IMG/VR virus record: IMGVR_UViG_3300045594_000116
Coordinates: 1 to 64,000 of that record
Length of the DNA: 64,000 nucleotides
Reading direction: 5' to 3' (one strand)
Source: a virus
Taxonomy: Duplodnaviria > Caudoviricetes
Made by a program: the position numbers and the translations under genes. The notes under the pieces are model-generated. The model was given only the letters and a program-made list of their open reading frames with translations, made no database searches and was not told the DNA's origin. Shown in pieces: positions 3,753 to 13,694 of this stretch (the first letter of the stretch is position 1; each line of letters starts with the position of its first letter).

Positions 3753-4073
3753 CTACCCTTTCGATCTCAGTAGGTAATTTATATAGTCTGCTAATACCCA
3801 AACTCCAGACTTTAGATTACCATACGGTAATAGATTTATCTTAACTCCAACAGGAAACTCATACGATACCTGCGCAGGATTAGAAACTATCTGTTGCATA
3901 AGCCAATTTAATTCTCCCTCATTAGGAAAATTAGCAGGGGCATTATCGAAATCTATCGTTACCATCTTAGATTCATCTATTCTATTCCCGAATGAATCTG
4001 TAAGTATTATCCTTCCAGATTTAAATCCTGATCTGGAGACATATGTGTTTTCAACTATTTGCAATCTACTCAC
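3753..4073 (-). CDS. Hypothetical protein (106 aa)
   Basis: ORF overlapping the stop of the upstream rSAM gene by 4 bp; AAGGAG upstream. Confidence 0.7.
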   Translation of the reverse strand: MSRLQIVENTYVSRSGFKSGRIILTDSFGNRIDESKMVTIDFDNAPANFPNEGELNWLMQQIVSNPAQVSYEFPVGVKINLLPYGNLKSGVWVLADYINYLLRSKG

Positions 4074-5245
4074 TCCTTATAAGGAAGATTCGTAGGAATA
4101 TCAAAGTTATACTCTTTCCATTCTTTAACGTAGGTATAAGCTCTTTTGGCCTTCTCTTCTTGAGAAGGCTGCTTTCCTTTGCTAAAGTTCTTGAATAAGA
4201 GACGTTCTAAGTCTCTCATCTCACATGCCTGCATAAGTTTATCAGCCATATTCTTCCTACGATACAATGTAACAGCAGGGCATTCAAAGCAATGATAATT
4301 GGCACAATATTTGTTACAAGTAGCGGGCTGCTTGTATATATCGATGAACTCTTTGATCTTATCTTTATAGAATCCATTATAGATATCTCCTACATAGAAT
4401 TCACAATCGTTATAAATTCCATCATGTGAGAAGTATCCACATGGAGCTATCTTTCCATCATTCTCTATATAAAGCATTCTACCAAGATGCCTACAAGATA
4501 TAGACCTAAGTCTATCTTTATCCTTCAATGTACTAGTAAAATACATAGTTTCAAAGTTAGCAAGATTTACATCTGGATGTGCTTTTAAAAGATTGCATAT
4601 CTTAGCCATCTGAATCATGTATCTATTCTGAAAGTGAGGATCATTATAATAATCACAATCAGAAAGATAATAGTATTCAATCTTTTTACACCCACAAAGA
4701 ATTGCGAATTTAACAGATGAAAATAAATCATCCACTGTATCTTCAGTAAGAGCTATACGGACTAATACATCTTTACCATACTTGCTAGTCCCGAGAGAAT
4801 GGATAATTTCATTAAAGTAATTATCTGTATACTTTGGATTCTTAGGTATTCTGGACCTAGAAGCACTATGGATTCCATCCCAAGATATCTTACATCCATA
4901 TGGATCTAATATACCATCATCCATAAGATCTATCAGTCCTGTAATGTTTGTACCATTGCTAATAGTGGTAAAGTACACCTTTGTATCAACAAACCTCTCC
5001 AGTTTTTTAATCTCTTTATATGCTTTCCTTATATCATCGCAGAAGAGAGAACTCTCTCCACCAGTAACCTTGATTTCAAATCCATCAGCAGATATAGGCA
5101 ATTTAGACAAAAAAGAAACGAGTCCACGGAAATCCGTGAACCCGTTATGCTTAGTCTTAACATCATGCTTCTGGAAACAATATTTACAATCAAGATTACA
5201 ATACTCGTTTATTTTGAAAGTAAGTGCTGTAAACTCTTTAAACAT
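4070..5245 (-). CDS. Radical SAM/SPASM-like protein 4
   Basis: CNLDCKYC motif, TGGE, SNGT, SWDG, C-terminal C...GKIAPC...CNKYCANYHCFEC...C. Start moved to MFKEF (AGGAGG upstream). Confidence 0.92.
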   Translation of the reverse strand: MFKEFTALTFKINEYCNLDCKYCFQKHDVKTKHNGFTDFRGLVSFLSKLPISADGFEIKVTGGESSLFCDDIRKAYKEIKKLERFVDTKVYFTTISNGTNITGLIDLMDDGILDPYGCKISWDGIHSASRSRIPKNPKYTDNYFNEIIHSLGTSKYGKDVLVRIALTEDTVDDLFSSVKFAILCGCKKIEYYYLSDCDYYNDPHFQNRYMIQMAKICNLLKAHPDVNLANFETMYFTSTLKDKDRLRSISCRHLGRMLYIENDGKIAPCGYFSHDGIYNDCEFYVGDIYNGFYKDKIKEFIDIYKQPATCNKYCANYHCFECPAVTLYRRKNMADKLMQACEMRDLERLLFKNFSKGKQPSQEEKAKRAYTYVKEWKEYNFDIPTNLPYKE

Positions 5246-5253
5246 GATTCCTC

Positions 5254-5457
5254 CTATTTGATTATGTCTATCCATTGTAGCACTATTACAGCTATCATAA
5301 GATAGAGCGATCCTCTCTTAATTTGTGATCCATAGACTGGACTTAGGCAAAGTAAAATCCCTATGATCAGCGATTGCCAGAACGTAACCCAATCGAGACC
5401 AAGTGTTATTACTGTTTTGCACATGTAATAAAACGTTACTGCTAATATCAAGAACAT
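5254..5457 (-). CDS. Small membrane protein (67 aa)
   Basis: Three hydrophobic stretches; AAGGAG RBS. Confidence 0.65.
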   Translation of the reverse strand: MFLILAVTFYYMCKTVITLGLDWVTFWQSLIIGILLCLSPVYGSQIKRGSLYLMIAVIVLQWIDIIK

Positions 5458-6236: not shown

Positions 6237-6260
6237 CAGGATAGCCATTTGGCTATCCTG
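6237..6260. terminator. Intrinsic terminator-like hairpin
   Basis: caggatagcc-attt-ggctatcctg, followed by a T run on the minus strand. Confidence 0.7.
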
Positions 6261-6267
6261 AATATTC

Positions 6268-7431
6268 TTACTCAATCTTACAAAAGTCCTGAAGAACTTT
6301 ATTATCATCTGAAAGAAACTTATCTACAGAATCTCTATATCTATCAACGATAGTAGCGATATTCTCAGAGTATACAGTTTTAGATTCAGCTGCTATATCT
6401 GACATTGCACAAGTATAATCATCTACAGGAACGTTCTTAATAGAAAACATATCAAGACGTCTCATACATGGAGATACATTCTTGAGTTTCAGATACTTTC
6501 TCAGGATACACAGGAAATCTGCATAGTTTCTCTTATCATAATAAGAGAGACCTCTAGCAAACTTATCGATGTCCTTGTATGCTTCCGAAATATAGTTCAT
6601 AGCATTCATTACGCCATGCATGAAATCAGTATATCTTCCACTCAGAAGATACAGATCATTCTTTTTGTCTTGCAACAGCAATACCGCAAAACTATATTTC
6701 TGATACTGATACTCATTGCCATCATTTTCGTCTTCTATCATCTTGGCATAATAGAGAAGCAGATCTACATCGGTTGTCAATGCTACGAGATTCTGCAATG
6801 AATCAGTGCACGCCTCGATGAAGCCATTATAAGCAGTATCCTTATCCGGATAGAACTTCAGGCAATCAGCCAATGCCTGCTTATTGAAAGCTATAGCTTC
6901 ATCTATCATATCTTTGGTAATCTCTTTACCAGCAAATCCATATGTGTGCATATAGATCTTCATGTGCATAGCTTTCAAGATTATATATCCAGAGAATGAT
7001 TTAACCTCTTCCTCTGTACACATTCCAAAGAAATCTAAGTATTTGTTAGTCCATTCATCGAATGTGGTATCTGTATACGACAAATTGATTATATCAGATA
7101 AGCAAATCAATCTGGTCTCATGATCATATTTATCGTTATTGAAGATCTCAATGAGTTCTTCCTTAGATTTATAGTATTCATAAATCATCTTATATTCAGT
7201 AATATATTCTGGGCATAATCTATTGACCGTTTCTTCAAGCATACCAAGATACTTGTTTGCAAAATCTAAATCTTTCTCTCTACTTCTATAGAGAAAATTC
7301 TCATATCCTATGATAGATTTAGATGCTACAGCCTTAGATACATAAGTATCTTCTAAAAGCTTTACAGCTTCCTTATACTTATCATCATCTTTTACTTTAG
7401 CGTATATACGCTCTGGCATGTAGTTAAACAC
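6268..7431 (-). CDS. Hypothetical alpha-helical protein (387 aa) in the rSAM operon
   Basis: Overlaps rSAM 3 by 8 bp; Tyr/Asp/Glu-rich helical pattern; no recognisable motif. Confidence 0.8.
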   Translation of the reverse strand: MFNYMPERIYAKVKDDDKYKEAVKLLEDTYVSKAVASKSIIGYENFLYRSREKDLDFANKYLGMLEETVNRLCPEYITEYKMIYEYYKSKEELIEIFNNDKYDHETRLICLSDIINLSYTDTTFDEWTNKYLDFFGMCTEEEVKSFSGYIILKAMHMKIYMHTYGFAGKEITKDMIDEAIAFNKQALADCLKFYPDKDTAYNGFIEACTDSLQNLVALTTDVDLLLYYAKMIEDENDGNEYQYQKYSFAVLLLQDKKNDLYLLSGRYTDFMHGVMNAMNYISEAYKDIDKFARGLSYYDKRNYADFLCILRKYLKLKNVSPCMRRLDMFSIKNVPVDDYTCAMSDIAAESKTVYSENIATIVDRYRDSVDKFLSDDNKVLQDFCKIE

Positions 7432-8509
7432 TCTTATTCACCCTCTTCATATATGATTCATATTCGACTTTACGCATTCCGCATAACTGAGCAAATTTAT
7501 ATTCATCCGTATTTCCTTTTCTGAATTTAGGAATACGGTTACATTCCACACAATGTGTATACTTACATTCTTTATGGGATAAGCATGAAGCAGTCTCTTT
7601 GCATTCTTTGCAGCTCATCTCATCTACTGCTTTTTTAATAGTGGAGATAGGATCATTGATCGAAATATCCTCATTACCATCGTATGCATATTTCCCTTTA
7701 AGGGAGAACAAACCGCATGGGAAGATATGACCATCTGGTGAGATATCGATAGACTTCATGGTCTTGTTGCTGCACCATGACTTATCTCTTATAGCGCTTT
7801 TCTTAGCATAATGAGATTCGATATGATCTAGATTGAATACAGAGAGATCTCCTCTAATTTTATAGAGATAATCAATGAATACTTCAAACTTATCTTGAAT
7901 CTCTGAGTCCCTATAATCATCATTATCCATAATGAAATAGTATTCCCAATTCTTTACACCGGCATGTGCCAGATATTCCAACGACTCAATATACACATCT
8001 CGCTCTAAGAACTCTCTAGTTATAGCAGTTCTTACATTTATATTTCTGGCTATTGGACTGGCACTGATCTTATCGATGATTTTCATATAGTCAGATTCGA
8101 TAAGAGGAGGACAATAGCAATTTTTATTACGAGTCCATCTAGATGCTAATCCATCCCAGCTAAGAGATGTTTCATTTACATCTAAGATTCCATCCTCGAT
8201 AAATTCTATAATGGAATCGATATTGGTTCCATTTGTATATAGGCCAAAATGAAGATGTGTTTCTTTAGTTCTTTCGATCTTCTTTAACCATTTGCATGCC
8301 TCAGCTATCAGTTTTGGCCTCAATGAGAGCTCCCCAGATGCGAGATTAACGATTAAGTCGTCTGCAAGGTCCAATTGCCCAAGCATGTGCAGTAAAGAGT
8401 CCCATTTACAAAAAGTTGCATCAGAGTGTCTCTGTTCATCTGTAAGAAAACAGTATGAGCATGACAAGTTACACAGATAAGACAAATGTAAGTTCAGTCG
8501 TTTAAGCAT
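7424..8509 (-). CDS. Radical SAM/SPASM-like protein 3
   Basis: CNLSCSYC, SGE, YTNGT, SWDG, DISPDGHIFPC, C-terminal Cys cluster ending HCVEC...C. Confidence 0.92.
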   Translation of the reverse strand: MLKRLNLHLSYLCNLSCSYCFLTDEQRHSDATFCKWDSLLHMLGQLDLADDLIVNLASGELSLRPKLIAEACKWLKKIERTKETHLHFGLYTNGTNIDSIIEFIEDGILDVNETSLSWDGLASRWTRNKNCYCPPLIESDYMKIIDKISASPIARNINVRTAITREFLERDVYIESLEYLAHAGVKNWEYYFIMDNDDYRDSEIQDKFEVFIDYLYKIRGDLSVFNLDHIESHYAKKSAIRDKSWCSNKTMKSIDISPDGHIFPCGLFSLKGKYAYDGNEDISINDPISTIKKAVDEMSCKECKETASCLSHKECKYTHCVECNRIPKFRKGNTDEYKFAQLCGMRKVEYESYMKRVNKSV

Positions 8510-8514
8510 TGTAT

Positions 8515-9537
8515 TCAGATCTCCCTATAATAAGATGCTAGATACTTTTTATATCTGAGTATCGTATTCGTTAATTTTTCAGTTTGCTCAGTTGATAATC
8601 CATCAATAAATTGCTTTACTGAATTATTATAAATCTCTACAGTTCTACAGGTAGATTCAAGATGATGATATTTCCAATCATCACCGAATACTTTATATCG
8701 CTCGTATCGACATCCACCATCACACATATACCAATACTTACATTGTTTACATGTAGGATCTACTGTATCAGCCTGCAGTTCATCAAGAGTAAAGTCTTTG
8801 TCTTTCTCTTGAGATAATGCAGTGCAGCAAGTCTCTCTACCCTGAGGATCTATCACCATATACTTGCCGACATCACAGCTGACAAATTTGGATTGGGAGA
8901 GGTAAGCAATTATCATATTCAAATGATTGCTATAGACTTTCTCAAGTTCAAATGTCTGTGGTAATACTTTGGCCAGAGTGCTATAATAGTCTTCGGTATA
9001 ATCAGTTCTATGAGCCAATACAAATTGCCCAGAGACACCATGCTTTTGAATATCTCTAAACCAATTATGCAAGTCTACCATTTGTTTGACGTTATCATTG
9101 CTTATTACAGTTTTGATATCGAACTTCAGTTTACCAATGCTATTGTATATATTAGCCAAAACTTTATCTGCGATTGATTTACCTTGAGTATTGATTCTAT
9201 TCTTGTTTAATCCATCCCATGACACTTGAACTTCATTCATTGGATAGTGTTTGTTAAACTCTAAGAATTCTTCCCAATTGACAGATGTAGAGGTAACGAT
9301 CTGAAATTTGATCTTGCCATAGTATTTCTTCATAACCTGTTCGATTAAATCCAGACGTACCAATGGCTCTCCTCCGAAAAAGAGAACTCTTGTAGGCTTA
9401 TGCTGCTCTATTTTATCATAGATAAGATCTAGTGTCATGGAGCTTGGCTTGTCTCTGTTTTTTATATAACAATACTGGCAACGATTTGGACAAAGCTCTG
9501 TAAGCATAAGATACATCTCGCTATACATACTATGCAC
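8515..9537 (-). CDS. Radical SAM/SPASM protein 2
   Basis: CPNRCQYC, FFGGEP, VSWDG, SCDVG...IDPQG...CC, CKQCKYWYMCDGGC...C. Confidence 0.93.
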   Translation of the reverse strand: MHSMYSEMYLMLTELCPNRCQYCYIKNRDKPSSMTLDLIYDKIEQHKPTRVLFFGGEPLVRLDLIEQVMKKYYGKIKFQIVTSTSVNWEEFLEFNKHYPMNEVQVSWDGLNKNRINTQGKSIADKVLANIYNSIGKLKFDIKTVISNDNVKQMVDLHNWFRDIQKHGVSGQFVLAHRTDYTEDYYSTLAKVLPQTFELEKVYSNHLNMIIAYLSQSKFVSCDVGKYMVIDPQGRETCCTALSQEKDKDFTLDELQADTVDPTCKQCKYWYMCDGGCRYERYKVFGDDWKYHHLESTCRTVEIYNNSVKQFIDGLSTEQTEKLTNTILRYKKYLASYYREI

Positions 9538-9588: not shown

Positions 9589-10452
9589 TTATACTAGTTC
9601 ACCCTTTTTTCTAAGAGCAGTTCTTAAAGACTGTATAGTTCTATATTTAGAATCTAAACGGTCAATAGATGGAATATAGTCTCTATTCTGCATAATTTTA
9701 AATATTTCTACGTCAGTATAGCCTTGCATGATGGCATACTTTATATCTTCTTTTTGCTCTTTGCTATAGGCATGCTTCTTACTACTTCTATCGAAATTAT
9801 ATTGAGAAGTAATTTCTTTCCATGTATATCCTCCACGTATATCTCGTAAAAGAGTATGATTAGCATTATCTATTTTCATCCCATTTTCTTTAAGAATTTG
9901 GGTATTGGATTTTCCAGCTTCAAACTCTTTGCAAAGAAAACGAACAAATTTCTCGTTAACTATTGGGCGGCCATGCTCCACCAAATGATTAACATTTGCT
10001 AAAAACTCCATAGCATGATGATTATTGCATACAGAACTAATCCATTCTAGATTCCATATAGCATTATTAGCATGATTGCCATCTATATGATTTACTTGCA
10101 TTTTTCTAAAATTAGCCGGAGGATTGCCAAATTGAAATGCCACTAATCTATGAATTAAGAAAGGATACTGAGTTCCATCTTCTCTAGTAAGAGTTACTGA
10201 ATAGTACCCTTGATTCATAAGAGCGGGCCTGACCATTCTTCTTGTTTTAAGATTTAGTACCAATCCACTTGAGCTTATCCAGTAATTATATTTTCTTACA
10301 GTTGGATAGGTTATCATAGTACCAGCATAAAATGCTTCTCCTCGCACCGTAGAATACTCGACAGATTGAGGAGTCTGCACAAGAAGCTCTTTTCTTTCCT
10401 CGTTCATTTCAGCAATAGTCGGAACTAATCTCATAACTTGTTTTTTCTGCAT
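9589..10452 (-). CDS. Free-standing HNH homing endonuclease (NUMOD4/HNH_3-like)
   Basis: YWISSSG...GYYSV...IHRLVA...VNHIDGNHANNAIWNLEW; start at MQKK after GAAAGGTG. Confidence 0.9.
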   Translation of the reverse strand: MQKKQVMRLVPTIAEMNEERKELLVQTPQSVEYSTVRGEAFYAGTMITYPTVRKYNYWISSSGLVLNLKTRRMVRPALMNQGYYSVTLTREDGTQYPFLIHRLVAFQFGNPPANFRKMQVNHIDGNHANNAIWNLEWISSVCNNHHAMEFLANVNHLVEHGRPIVNEKFVRFLCKEFEAGKSNTQILKENGMKIDNANHTLLRDIRGGYTWKEITSQYNFDRSSKKHAYSKEQKEDIKYAIMQGYTDVEIFKIMQNRDYIPSIDRLDSKYRTIQSLRTALRKKGELV

Positions 10453-10600
10453 AATAAACACCTTTCTTTAATAAAAAATATATATAGTTTTTTTATATAG
10501 TGTTATATTATTAATTATTTTTTATTAAAAAAGATGAGTAAGCACTAAAATGCTCTAATCGCATTAGTTCAGATGCGTTAAACGCCTCAAATAAGGGATC

Positions 10601-11569
10601 TCAGCTGAAACCGCCGCAATTTTGATTGTGGCAAGTCCCTCCATAACATGATTGGCAGGACAACTGGCAAGGTTGCTGGCAAGTCACCTGACAGGTCAGG
10701 GCACAACCTCCATCGTTCCATGGCCCATAGGAATCTATAGCGTGACTGATCTGACGCAGATTAGTAGTGATGGCTATAAACGTGCTAGCCATGATCTTCT
10801 GCCCTGCGGCAACCGAAGCAATAGAGCCTGCACCTGTACCATTTGAATACTCTACAGCCTGTACTCTATTGGTATTGGTGCATTCATAGACATATCCTGG
10901 GTCTGTTGTTGATTCCATATCTGACCATCCATAAAGCTTTACACGATTTGAACACTCAAGGGTAGGATTCGAGCAAACGTTATAAGTACCCGTTGTATCT
11001 GTATTGGTGATTGGACCTTCCTTGAAGATCTGTTTCTTTGTAACGGTATAATACGTTGGATTACCATCTGCATCCAAAACTGGAACAGGGTTCTTAAATC
11101 CTGCGATCATCTTTGGTGTACCATCAGCATTGAATACACCAATACCAGTAACTGGATCTACTTCCTGCATATCCGGAACTGTCTTCTGCTCCTGCTTCTG
11201 AATAAGAGTTTTCGAAACTGGGAACTGACATGGACGGGACTCCATCTTTGTATATGTATTACCAACAGTGGATGTCATCTCATTTGTATATTTGATAATT
11301 GTATTGATCCATGATGCATAAACCGGAGCATCTGTAACGATAGCCCCTTTAGTGTTACGCATCTCCGACTCCTTACCAGCATCTGCAATACCAGAAAGCT
11401 GTTTCAAACCCATGGTAGCCGGATTTGCTTTGATCTTATTCCAAGAATCTCTTTCATTCATAACAGTGAGCAATACGTCCAAAAGATATGAAGTAGAGGA
11501 TGCATAGATTTCATCCCCTGCTTTCACATCTGCTGGTTCCGTATAGTGAACTACACCTCTATCAGCCAT
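10601..11569 (-). CDS. Virion-like protein with C-terminal Cys-rich SCIFF/ranthipeptide-like core (putative rSAM substrate)
   Basis: Ends GGCALTCQVTCQQPCQLSCQSCYGGTCHNQNCGGFS (8 Cys); three G/A-x-x-I/V-x-AS helix motifs; overlaps rSAM 1 by 8 bp. Confidence 0.8.
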   Translation of the reverse strand: MADRGVVHYTEPADVKAGDEIYASSTSYLLDVLLTVMNERDSWNKIKANPATMGLKQLSGIADAGKESEMRNTKGAIVTDAPVYASWINTIIKYTNEMTSTVGNTYTKMESRPCQFPVSKTLIQKQEQKTVPDMQEVDPVTGIGVFNADGTPKMIAGFKNPVPVLDADGNPTYYTVTKKQIFKEGPITNTDTTGTYNVCSNPTLECSNRVKLYGWSDMESTTDPGYVYECTNTNRVQAVEYSNGTGAGSIASVAAGQKIMASTFIAITTNLRQISHAIDSYGPWNDGGCALTCQVTCQQPCQLSCQSCYGGTCHNQNCGGFS

Positions 11570-12944
11570 TTACTTTTTCCTCCTTAACCAACTTCCCAGC
11601 ATCCTGAATTGAAATACCGGAAGCACTAAGATAATACGTAAGCACCGTGGTAATTATATTATCTAAATAGATTCTAAATGTCGGAAGGATAAATTGATCC
11701 ATTCCGTCTATCATCTCTTTAAGATGGGTAATACGAGTTACAGCCGTAAGACGATCAGAGAGATTAGTATTGTGATAAATCGTATCTGCATAATCTTTGA
11801 GCTTCAGATTCTCTTTAAGAATAACAAGCTGTCTGTTACGAATATTCGTAGCATGAAGAAGCTTATGCTGATACTTTCTCGTTGCCTCTACAAGAACTAT
11901 TCTCGTATTGCAATAATCATCCGATGGGATATGCTCATCGCCTGTCATACGCCAATTCTCTGAGATGCATCCGCCTTTGCAGATAGCTTTACCAATACAA
12001 TCTTTACATTGCTCTTTAAGATATGGGGTGTGTACATCTTTACATGCAAACTTACTCATATCAATACCAGTGTACAGATTACCAATCTTTGTCATCTTCT
12101 TACGATCTTCCGTAGACGTAGGGCACTGATGGCATGGATAAACATCTGCGTTAGTATCAAAGCAGCACCACTTATCAGAGTAGATCGGGCACATGAGAGG
12201 ATCATCAACCTCTGGCGACATCACATTTACAAGAATATCATTCGTATTCTTGATAGAGATATTGCGCTTGCATGTCTCATCATTCATATATGAGAAATAC
12301 AGCTCAAACATATCAAGATAACACTGCTTAAGTTCAGCAAGATGCTCCTTAGACCATGCTACATCTACTACAGCCATTGGACAGAGATTATTGATACCCA
12401 TTTCGATAAGCTCTTTAACTCCTTCAGCTGCATACTTTGCATCTTCCGGCATAATAGTAAGACGAGCCTCAATGAATAATGCCAACCCAGCATCGATAAG
12501 ACGATGAATATTCTTTACAACCGTATCATATGTACCACACCTATTACGGTCATGGACTTTCTTGATACCGTCTATACTGACCATAAGCATAACTTCATAA
12601 TCATCAAAGTATTTGATCATCTCATCGGTAAGAAGTGTAAGATTGGTAGTAATGCCCATCTTCGTTTTATACTTCTTTTCAGCACAATGATCCAATACTG
12701 CTTTGATAGCCGGCCAATTAAGAAGTGGTTCACCACCAAAGATATTGATGGTGAACGTTCCTACCCCTGAACTGACTTTATTATATGCAGCATCTACAAT
12801 ATCAATCGCAGTCTGCGGTTTCATAATAGCCGGATGCTTATCATGCTCAAAGCAGTAGCGACACGCAATATTACACCCATCAGTAACATTGAGTGTTATA
12901 GAATCACAATTATAAACATCGGCAAACTTTTTCAATTCTGACAT
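11562..12944 (-). CDS. Radical SAM/SPASM maturase-like protein 1
   Basis: CNIACRYC, IFGGEPL, TTN, SIDG, C...DVYPC...IGNL...CKDCIGKAICKGGC...C, plus a ~100 aa helical C-terminal extension. Confidence 0.95.
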   Translation of the reverse strand: MSELKKFADVYNCDSITLNVTDGCNIACRYCFEHDKHPAIMKPQTAIDIVDAAYNKVSSGVGTFTINIFGGEPLLNWPAIKAVLDHCAEKKYKTKMGITTNLTLLTDEMIKYFDDYEVMLMVSIDGIKKVHDRNRCGTYDTVVKNIHRLIDAGLALFIEARLTIMPEDAKYAAEGVKELIEMGINNLCPMAVVDVAWSKEHLAELKQCYLDMFELYFSYMNDETCKRNISIKNTNDILVNVMSPEVDDPLMCPIYSDKWCCFDTNADVYPCHQCPTSTEDRKKMTKIGNLYTGIDMSKFACKDVHTPYLKEQCKDCIGKAICKGGCISENWRMTGDEHIPSDDYCNTRIVLVEATRKYQHKLLHATNIRNRQLVILKENLKLKDYADTIYHNTNLSDRLTAVTRITHLKEMIDGMDQFILPTFRIYLDNIITTVLTYYLSASGISIQDAGKLVKEEKVNG

Positions 12945-12958
12945 TCTGTTTATCCCCT

Positions 12959-13243
12959 TTACTTAAACGTAACCGTTCTTGCATGCCAAGCATTATTATG
13001 AAAGGTCTCAAGAAGGTTAGTTTCCATATTCATATGCATATTCTTACCATTTATAGGAGAGGAAGGTCTATTGGCCGTAGCACCAATAGTAATGATATTA
13101 TCTCCTAAGCCATTCTGAACGATATTCATTTTACGAACAAGTTCATTAAACTCATCCTTAGTACACTTACCATAGATAAGTGAGATAAGACTAGGGGATA
13201 GGTCATTCTTTTTTGTACCTGTCTCCTCAAGATTGATAGCCAT
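12959..13243 (-). CDS. Small structural-type protein (94 aa), paralog of next gene
   Basis: INLE..DLSPSL..P.SPING..W pattern; GGAGGG RBS. Confidence 0.75.
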   Translation of the reverse strand: MAINLEETGTKKNDLSPSLISLIYGKCTKDEFNELVRKMNIVQNGLGDNIITIGATANRPSSPINGKNMHMNMETNLLETFHNNAWHARTVTFK

Positions 13244-13258
13244 AATTTATTCCCTCCT

Positions 13259-13537
13259 TTAGGCGTATACGCCATGAGAAGGTTTCCATCCGCCGGCATA
13301 TGAATAGAGCTGATCATTGCTTACATTGAATGCAAGTTCACGGTTATTAACCGGATTGGCTATATTCCCAAGATTGTCAGTAATACTCACACGATTCTCA
13401 CCAAGCTGACTAAAGAGCTTGGTTATGGTATTATCGGCCGTAGAGAAAGTAGAAGTATCTACGCTATCTCTAATTTTATCCTGTAAGCTTGGTGCTAATT
13501 CCTCAAACGTGATTTTATCTTCAAGATTAAAAGACAT
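13259..13537 (-). CDS. Small structural-type protein (92 aa), paralog of previous gene
   Basis: FNLE..ELAPSL..NPVNN..W; start MSFNLED after AAGGAGG. Confidence 0.75.
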   Translation of the reverse strand: MSFNLEDKITFEELAPSLQDKIRDSVDTSTFSTADNTITKLFSQLGENRVSITDNLGNIANPVNNRELAFNVSNDQLYSYAGGWKPSHGVYA

Positions 13538-13557
13538 TGTTATTACCTCCTTTGATT

Positions 13558-13569
13558 TACCTATATGTC
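13558..13569 (-). promoter_or_regulatory. Late-like promoter GACA-N6-TA driving the rSAM/Cys-tail operon
   Basis: GACA TATAGG TA; the NACA-N6-TA motif recurs upstream of at least 15 genes in the window. Confidence 0.65.
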
Positions 13570-13658
13570 CCAATAATAGAGTTTGAGGCTCCTGCTGGTA
13601 TCAGGTTCTCCCCATATCTATCTATTATATAAAAGTTTATTTAAGCATAAAAAATAAC

Positions 13659-13683
13659 AGGATAGGCCTATTGCCTATCCTGC
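13659..13683. terminator. Terminator-like hairpin
   Basis: caggataggc-ctatt-gcctatcctg with a T run on the minus strand. Confidence 0.65.
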
Positions 13684-13694
13684 TATTATTGTAA

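Follow-up and report, generated by a model that had tools for sequence, protein, structure and literature searches.

What does a jumbo phage gain from a 322-residue protein that ends in a dense run of cysteine and glutamine and is encoded directly beside a radical SAM gene? The question arises from the stretch of 64,000 nucleotides analyzed here (the window), which belongs to a virus record consisting of one sequence of 229,508 bases, an AR9/phiKZ-type jumbo phage. This genome carries split RNA polymerase beta genes, and its nearest cultured relatives are the Bacillus phages AR9 and PBS1, at 37% identity. The runs containing the window are sludge, wastewater, and bioreactor metagenomes. We read the product, with a probability of roughly 0.55, as an uncleaved virion-associated protein whose tail receives enzyme-made thioether cross-links, probably between Cys and Gln. 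Enzymatic modification of the tail, of whatever kind, is very probable.

The putative substrate gene lies on the minus strand (10601-11569), encodes 322 aa, and has a strong Shine-Dalgarno sequence. Its start overlaps by 8 nt the stop of the upstream gene rSAM1 (11562..12944, minus), which encodes 460 aa with a radical SAM domain, a seven-Cys SPASM domain, and a C-terminal extension of ~110 aa. Contigs from three other studies span the substrate gene, with no indels among the matches listed. RNA runs gave scattered contigs only, none of them on this gene among the matches listed, and a promoter scan showed no excess over shuffles. Three further enzymes follow on the same strand, namely rSAM2 (8515..9537, 340 aa, seven-Cys SPASM), rSAM3 (7424..8509, 361 aa, SPASM-like Cys cluster, absent from some loci), and rSAM4 (4070..5275, about 390-401 aa, SPASM-like Cys cluster). 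A TPR-like helical solenoid of 387 aa (6268..7431, minus) is also kept in the cassette and is a candidate adaptor or chaperone. The HNH endonuclease inserted in the cassette (9589..10461, minus) is not part of the system, since many loci lack it and contigs of another sample run past it. It is a mobile insertion directly behind the substrate gene: run X16 contigs skip it (joint 9599 to 10601), and L003 and L006 each have it in duplicate. Upstream, two small genes of 94 and 104 aa (12959..13573, minus) are kept in AR9-type loci; for the 94-aa product, a PHROG virion structural protein is a weak match (E 5e-4). Two hairpins with the common arm CAGGATAG, at window positions 6237-6260 and 13653-13687, bracket most of the cassette.

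The pairing of the two genes carries the argument for modification. Only four radical SAM genes with this motif occur in the 229.5-kb genome, and they are co-oriented and all placed around the Cys-ladder gene. In all 33 loci that have upstream DNA, the first radical SAM gene before the substrate gene is of the rSAM1 type, which yields 21 non-redundant enzyme/substrate pairs, the window included. It adjoins the substrate gene, with one small gene between them in L007 and L008. The rSAM1 orthologs share 33-57% identity with the window enzyme, against 23-26% for unrelated phage radical SAM proteins, and the cysteines C24/28/31 (CxxxCxxC) and C252/271/313/316/322/326/345 (SPASM) are conserved in 16 of them. 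Most loci have two or three further radical SAM enzymes downstream, usually with the TPR-like protein; rSAM1 is the only one nearby in L001/L002, and the next one in L016 is at the contig end. Distances of enzyme and substrate are correlated (rho 0.58), which reflects shared ancestry and was not counted as co-evolution. The cassette is present in AR9-type and T4-like genomes, in one case beside the T4 gp13 neck gene, and therefore is not confined to one phage lineage. From this conserved pairing, the tail very probably is a radical SAM substrate, as had been proposed, and the 322-aa protein is best read as a dedicated, full-length substrate of the phage radical SAM/SPASM cassette.

Several loci depart from this layout. 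One cassette radical SAM gene contains an intein (L034:11621-13294). In the record of L017, a second cassette of the same phage lies next to a fibre-like gene (L040:5297-14382); the genes for its two ~200-aa proteins, one with Cys and poly-Ser runs at its end, precede about six divergent radical SAM genes. The tail pattern also caught a different system, in which a protein of 1111 aa has its CxxxC ladder internally and a radical SAM gene comes next (L026:1006-4341).

According to the predicted model and the homologs, the substrate (10601..11569, minus) consists of a four-helix core, a beta-rich insert, and the Cys/Gln tail. Model and family comparison assign helices 1-3 to an N-terminal core (residues 1-101; 11267..11569, minus), whereas helix 4, together with the third of three related body motifs, is predicted to complete the bundle (residues 255-278; 10736..10807, minus). 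The three motifs had been noticed in the original prediction and proved to be true internal repeats; a profile of motif 3 places motifs 1 (11495-11521, minus) and 2 (11309-11332, minus), both in the N-terminal core, at median rank 2 among all windows per protein. Each caps a helix in the model (helices 1, 3, and 4). The variable insert (about residues 105-250; 10820..11257, minus) has ~145 aa in the model, with predicted beta-hairpins, four subfamily-conserved cysteines (114, 199, 206, and 230), and the two [DN]ADGxP turns described earlier, found at residues 147 and 166 (11114-11131 and 11057-11074, minus). Domain and family searches returned no family match for this insert. Fold searches with the full model and with a 192-aa member retrieved only family members (BFVD A0A8S5UTL8, auto-named SCIFF, and Atlas viral clusters) and generic helical bundles, and a PDB sequence search with the core profile gave nothing significant. 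Weak fold matches to flagellin (E above 0.02) and a rudivirus protein (E above 0.07) were not counted as homologs. The trimer prediction scored under the mark and was counted neither for nor against.

There are 38 close homologs of the 322-aa protein, and the family comprises 130 clusters at 50% identity, mostly of 170-630 aa (median 262 aa, 10th percentile 173 aa) and viral where recorded. The shortest complete members (~170-200 aa) consist of the four-helix core and the tail, with a model pLDDT of 86. In longer members, helices 3 and 4 are separated by an insert of up to about 400 aa, or less commonly the N-terminus is extended; roughly one family member in three lacks an insert. As judged from sequence, core and tail stay together as a constant unit, and what is exchanged is the middle. 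The tail is therefore not grafted onto a carrier in this lineage: it occurs together with the helical core in members as short as ~190 aa, and only the middle insert changes. A tblastn search of 50,697 GenBank phages with four family queries, low-complexity filter on, gave no meaningful match, and GTDB genomes yielded three short MAG contigs only, which are probably binned phage DNA.

Individual members show further variation. P0021 and P0022 (L001:10001-11065), where only rSAM1 is nearby, continue past the tail with a hydrophobic stretch of ~20 aa. Two paralogous substrate genes occur per cassette in L010:9866-10768 and L014:6774-10150; one L014 paralog has a Gly-rich insert and the other none. 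The variants P0100, P0139, P0153, P0156, and P0160 carry the ladder in their middle; ~200 aa come after it, and these have a Cys-containing end of their own.

The tail itself was read correctly in the original prediction, both for the last 36 residues (10604-10711) and for the spacing Cx3Cx3Cx3Cx3Cx2Cx4Cx4C, which corresponds to cysteines 289, 293, 297, 301, 305, 308, 313, and 318. No other ORF of the 229.5-kb genome has a CxxxCxxxCxxxC ladder, and seven of the eight cysteines are invariant in 31 homologs, so the tail is not a product of chance. Hypervariability had been suggested as something to look for among homologs; the tail turned out to be the most conserved part of the family proteins. 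Four CxxxC steps (C289-C305; 10655..10705, minus) are present in 89 of 94 representatives with a complete motif and 5 to 36 steps in the other five, the longest ladder reaching about 150 residues. The distal motif C-x4-C-H-[ND]-Q-x-C-G (10604..10648, minus) has fixed spacing and is never expanded; its His occurs in 108/108 representatives, a set picked by that motif. From the variable length of one part and the fixed spacing of the other, the tail can be divided into an expandable ladder module and a cap module that stays fixed. Gln follows Cys 2, 3, 4, and 5 in 96, 97, 87, and 91% of cases and Cys 1 in 22%. Asp and Glu together make up 3.2%, 0.9%, and 0.2% of ladder positions +1, +2, and +3, and position +3 is Ser, Ala, Thr, or Gly.

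Such a tail might also be, wholly or in part, a metal or Fe-S domain, for example with a distal Cys3-His zinc site, the enzymes acting elsewhere or making something other than a thioether (on His or Trp, or an epimer). The fixed spacing of the distal Cys/His motif would suit this, as would the aromatic-Asp/Asn motif that precedes the ladder in 93 of 94 representatives, and four divergent enzymes exceed the needs of one ladder. A ladder of 4 to 36 steps is unlike a defined metal site, however, and fits repeated enzymatic modification; Gln is conserved beside each Cys, the best relatives of the enzymes form thioethers, and rSAM1 is present in every locus with upstream DNA. We consider a metal site or such other chemistry quite unlikely. 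Binding of heme c through the Cx4CH motif was set aside, as its first Cys is absent in about 10% of cases. A second ground is that, to our knowledge, a phage protein made in the cytoplasm has no access to cytochrome c maturation.

What the enzymes do to the tail is extrapolated, since all four fall far below every NCBIfam cut-off. PapB is the best NCBIfam match of rSAM1 (E 1e-55), followed by the QhpD family (6e-40), and SCIFF-type maturases are also found. The solved structure closest to rSAM1 is that of the SCIFF maturase CteB (5WGG, E 7e-22), of which no residue before 98 aligned. Since the SAM motif begins 12-25 residues into each of the four window enzymes, rSAM1-4 have no N-terminal RRE. 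At the level of genes, the arrangement is of the ranthipeptide type, with an adjacent CxxxCxxC and seven-Cys SPASM enzyme and a Cys-rich partner in 33/33 loci.

The likeness to SCIFF that had been proposed holds for the repeat and not for the family. CteA of the CteA/CteB system (TIGR03973, PF13165, TIGR03974) has a similar CQxxCQxxC-type repeat. However, it is a 45-aa peptide with six Cys, an RRE-bound leader, and one Cys-Thr bridge (PMC8326336), whereas the phage protein has 322 aa, eight tail Cys, a distal His motif, and no RRE. In HMM alignment, it gave no match to PF13165 or TIGR03973 at E 0.1-1, and the TIGR03974 score on the enzyme side is 106 bits, where the cut-off is 425. The Gly-Gly before the first Cys, part of the proposed pattern, is found in 2 of 94 representatives. 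The automatic UniProt name SCIFF on a 200-aa relative reflects the repeat likeness that was noticed in the original prediction.

If the long N-terminus were a giant leader, as was also suggested, the modified tail would be cut off as a free peptide, a toxin or a signal such as a SCIFF mimic. The repeat resembles the SCIFF core (PF13165 at E 0.025 in 2/31 homologs and E 9e-4 in 1/64), Cys is confined to the C-terminus, where the pLDDT of the model is low, and SCIFF products are listed as clostridial quorum-sensing peptides (PMC8326336). Nevertheless, the N-terminus is predicted to fold as a four-helix domain, there is no conserved Gly-Gly or other cleavage motif, and neither a peptidase nor a transporter is found among the annotated neighbours. 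A leader has no reason to take up sugar-binding inserts of 150-400 aa, and the ladder can reach about 150 residues. Release of a peptide therefore appears very unlikely, and a protein that stays whole is preferred.

Other known systems resemble the phage cassette in part. In the CXXX-repeat system (TIGR04114, with the target PF27846, TIGR04115, and TIGR04117), Cys also recurs every fourth residue beside a SPASM enzyme, although that system is predicted only. The PF27846 entry is recorded for 5 long-ladder homologs, and TIGR04117 matches weakly in 5/31; the 322-aa protein itself has no match, and the TIGR04115 score is 86.5 bits for rSAM1 and lower for the others, against a cut-off of 350. The five-Cys ladder is flanked by Gln and Val/Leu, whereas the CXXX-repeat definition calls for small flanking residues, and a Cys at every fourth position alone does not define a family. 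PapA/PapB (freyrasin) provides the best NCBIfam match of all four phage enzymes (67-189 bits, cut-off 340), but PapB joins Cys to Asp in a short peptide, and a PapA-type Cys-x-x-Asp/Glu acceptor is all but missing from the ladder, given 0.2% acidic residues at +3. QhpD stiffens the protein subunit QhpC with radical SAM thioethers (PMC13692751), as is proposed here; however, it forms Cys-Asp/Glu bridges, has an RRE, and acts on an enzyme subunit with a cleaved leader, while the phage ladder is almost without Asp/Glu.

CrpC of Methanococcus voltae cross-links CrpA, a 29-kDa protein, with thioethers, and recognition is partly domain to domain (PMC13692751). CrpA/CrpC (TIGR04463) resembles the phage system in its large protein, C-terminal Cys repeats, and adjacent radical SAM enzyme with a seven-Cys SPASM domain, and the SPASM ligand spacing of rSAM1, 19/3/6/4/19, is that of CrpC (PMC13692751). 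It differs in its archaeal chromosomal setting, its single enzyme with an RRE, and its 17-residue repeat, in contrast to the four enzymes without an N-terminal RRE, the four-residue Cys-Gln ladder, the helical core, and the exchangeable insert of the phage. A cultured model of a similar system is offered by Salmonella phage SPN3US (NC_027402; L027:5067-5874), in which two Cys/Gly/Ser-rich ORFs with CxxxC repeats (130 and 134 aa) sit between the virion gene gp167 and the radical SAM pair gp163/164. The first of these is unannotated in the records, and the second stretch is annotated in another frame (gp166). As homologs of the four-helix core they were rejected (hhalign probability 10%).

In the reaction that we propose, rSAM1 would recognize the folded helical core without an RRE, possibly helped by the TPR-like protein, and would install non-reducible thioether bridges in the Cys/Gln ladder. 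In the simplest register, each of Cys 1-4 would be joined to the Gln five residues downstream; such a register uses all four conserved Gln, which would explain why none is needed after Cys 1. Five-residue spacing is known from the in vitro Cys32-Thr37 bridge of CteA, although an in vivo study placed the bridge on Thr34 (PMC8326336). Alternatively, the register could be Gln-x-x-Cys, as in NxxcA. The fixed distal motif, Cys-His-[Asn/Asp]-Gln-x-Cys, may be the target of rSAM2-4. Gene pairing, thioether-forming nearest enzymes, the Gln pattern, and ladder expansion speak for thioethers. Against them, Asp/Glu, the proven PapB/QhpD acceptors, occupy at most 3% of ladder positions, and no proven Cys-Gln thioether was found in the literature examined.

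Where the modified protein may act is suggested by the inserts of its relatives. Among 64 long members, nine match a PHROG tail protein (best E 4e-15), and matches to tail fibre assembly (4), Gly_rich_2 (3), F5/8 type C or discoidin (3), and CBM5/12 (2) domains also occur. Where mapped, the tail-type and sugar-binding domains lie mostly between the two core halves, and N-terminally in P0097. The genes neighbouring the cassette in the window encode SPRY, beta-propeller, and CBM96 domains. These inserts and fibre-type neighbours favour a structural carrier, so that this part of the original fibre-like proposal finds support, while a core grafted onto an unrelated carrier does not. We picture a virion-associated fibre or appendage subunit with the exchangeable insert facing outward, although discoidin and CBM domains also occur outside virions. 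A cross-linked tip, as first suggested, is doubtful: helix 4 leads away from the insert and ends at the tail, which probably puts the tail at the other pole from the adhesin-like insert. The stapled tail could then provide a rigid base or joint, and its assembly would be compatible with the reducing cytoplasm of an anaerobe.

A modified protein might instead act in the infected cell or on its surface, as a scaffold, host-takeover, or exclusion factor. Gene pairing is silent as to location, an adhesin-like insert is missing from many members, and two close relatives have the hydrophobic C-terminal extension; some loci place the cassette with replication genes, near nrdD, Thy1, and ligase genes, and not with tail genes. 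Against this, tail-type and carbohydrate-binding domains entered the same loop repeatedly and independently, and fibre-type genes adjoin the cassette in the window. An intracellular or surface role is judged unlikely, and we favour a virion-associated protein. Tentatively, and with odds well below even, adhesin-loop four-helix subunits may build a jumbo-phage appendage, with the four-enzyme line locking their Cys/Gln tails, possibly between subunits through Cys-Gln thioethers.

No paper on this family or on radical SAM modification of phage proteins was found in the open literature; PMC11118758 concerns host RiPPs. Radical SAM thioethers on whole proteins are known from very few substrates, QhpC and CrpA (PMC13692751). 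The literature searches turned up no viral example. New here are the constant core with an exchangeable adhesin-type insert, the statistics of a two-module tail, and the rejection of the SCIFF and leader readings. Several of the cassette-bearing AR9-type and T4-like jumbo phages come from gut, rumen, or sludge samples. The retention of the cassette across jumbo phages suggests structural proteins that are covalently braced without disulfides, and this would explain several orphan radical SAM genes in such phages. The system also offers four RRE-less enzymes with one clear putative substrate, possibly with Gln as a thioether acceptor. If the appendage proposal is true, RiPP-type chemistry would serve as a construction chemistry of the virion.
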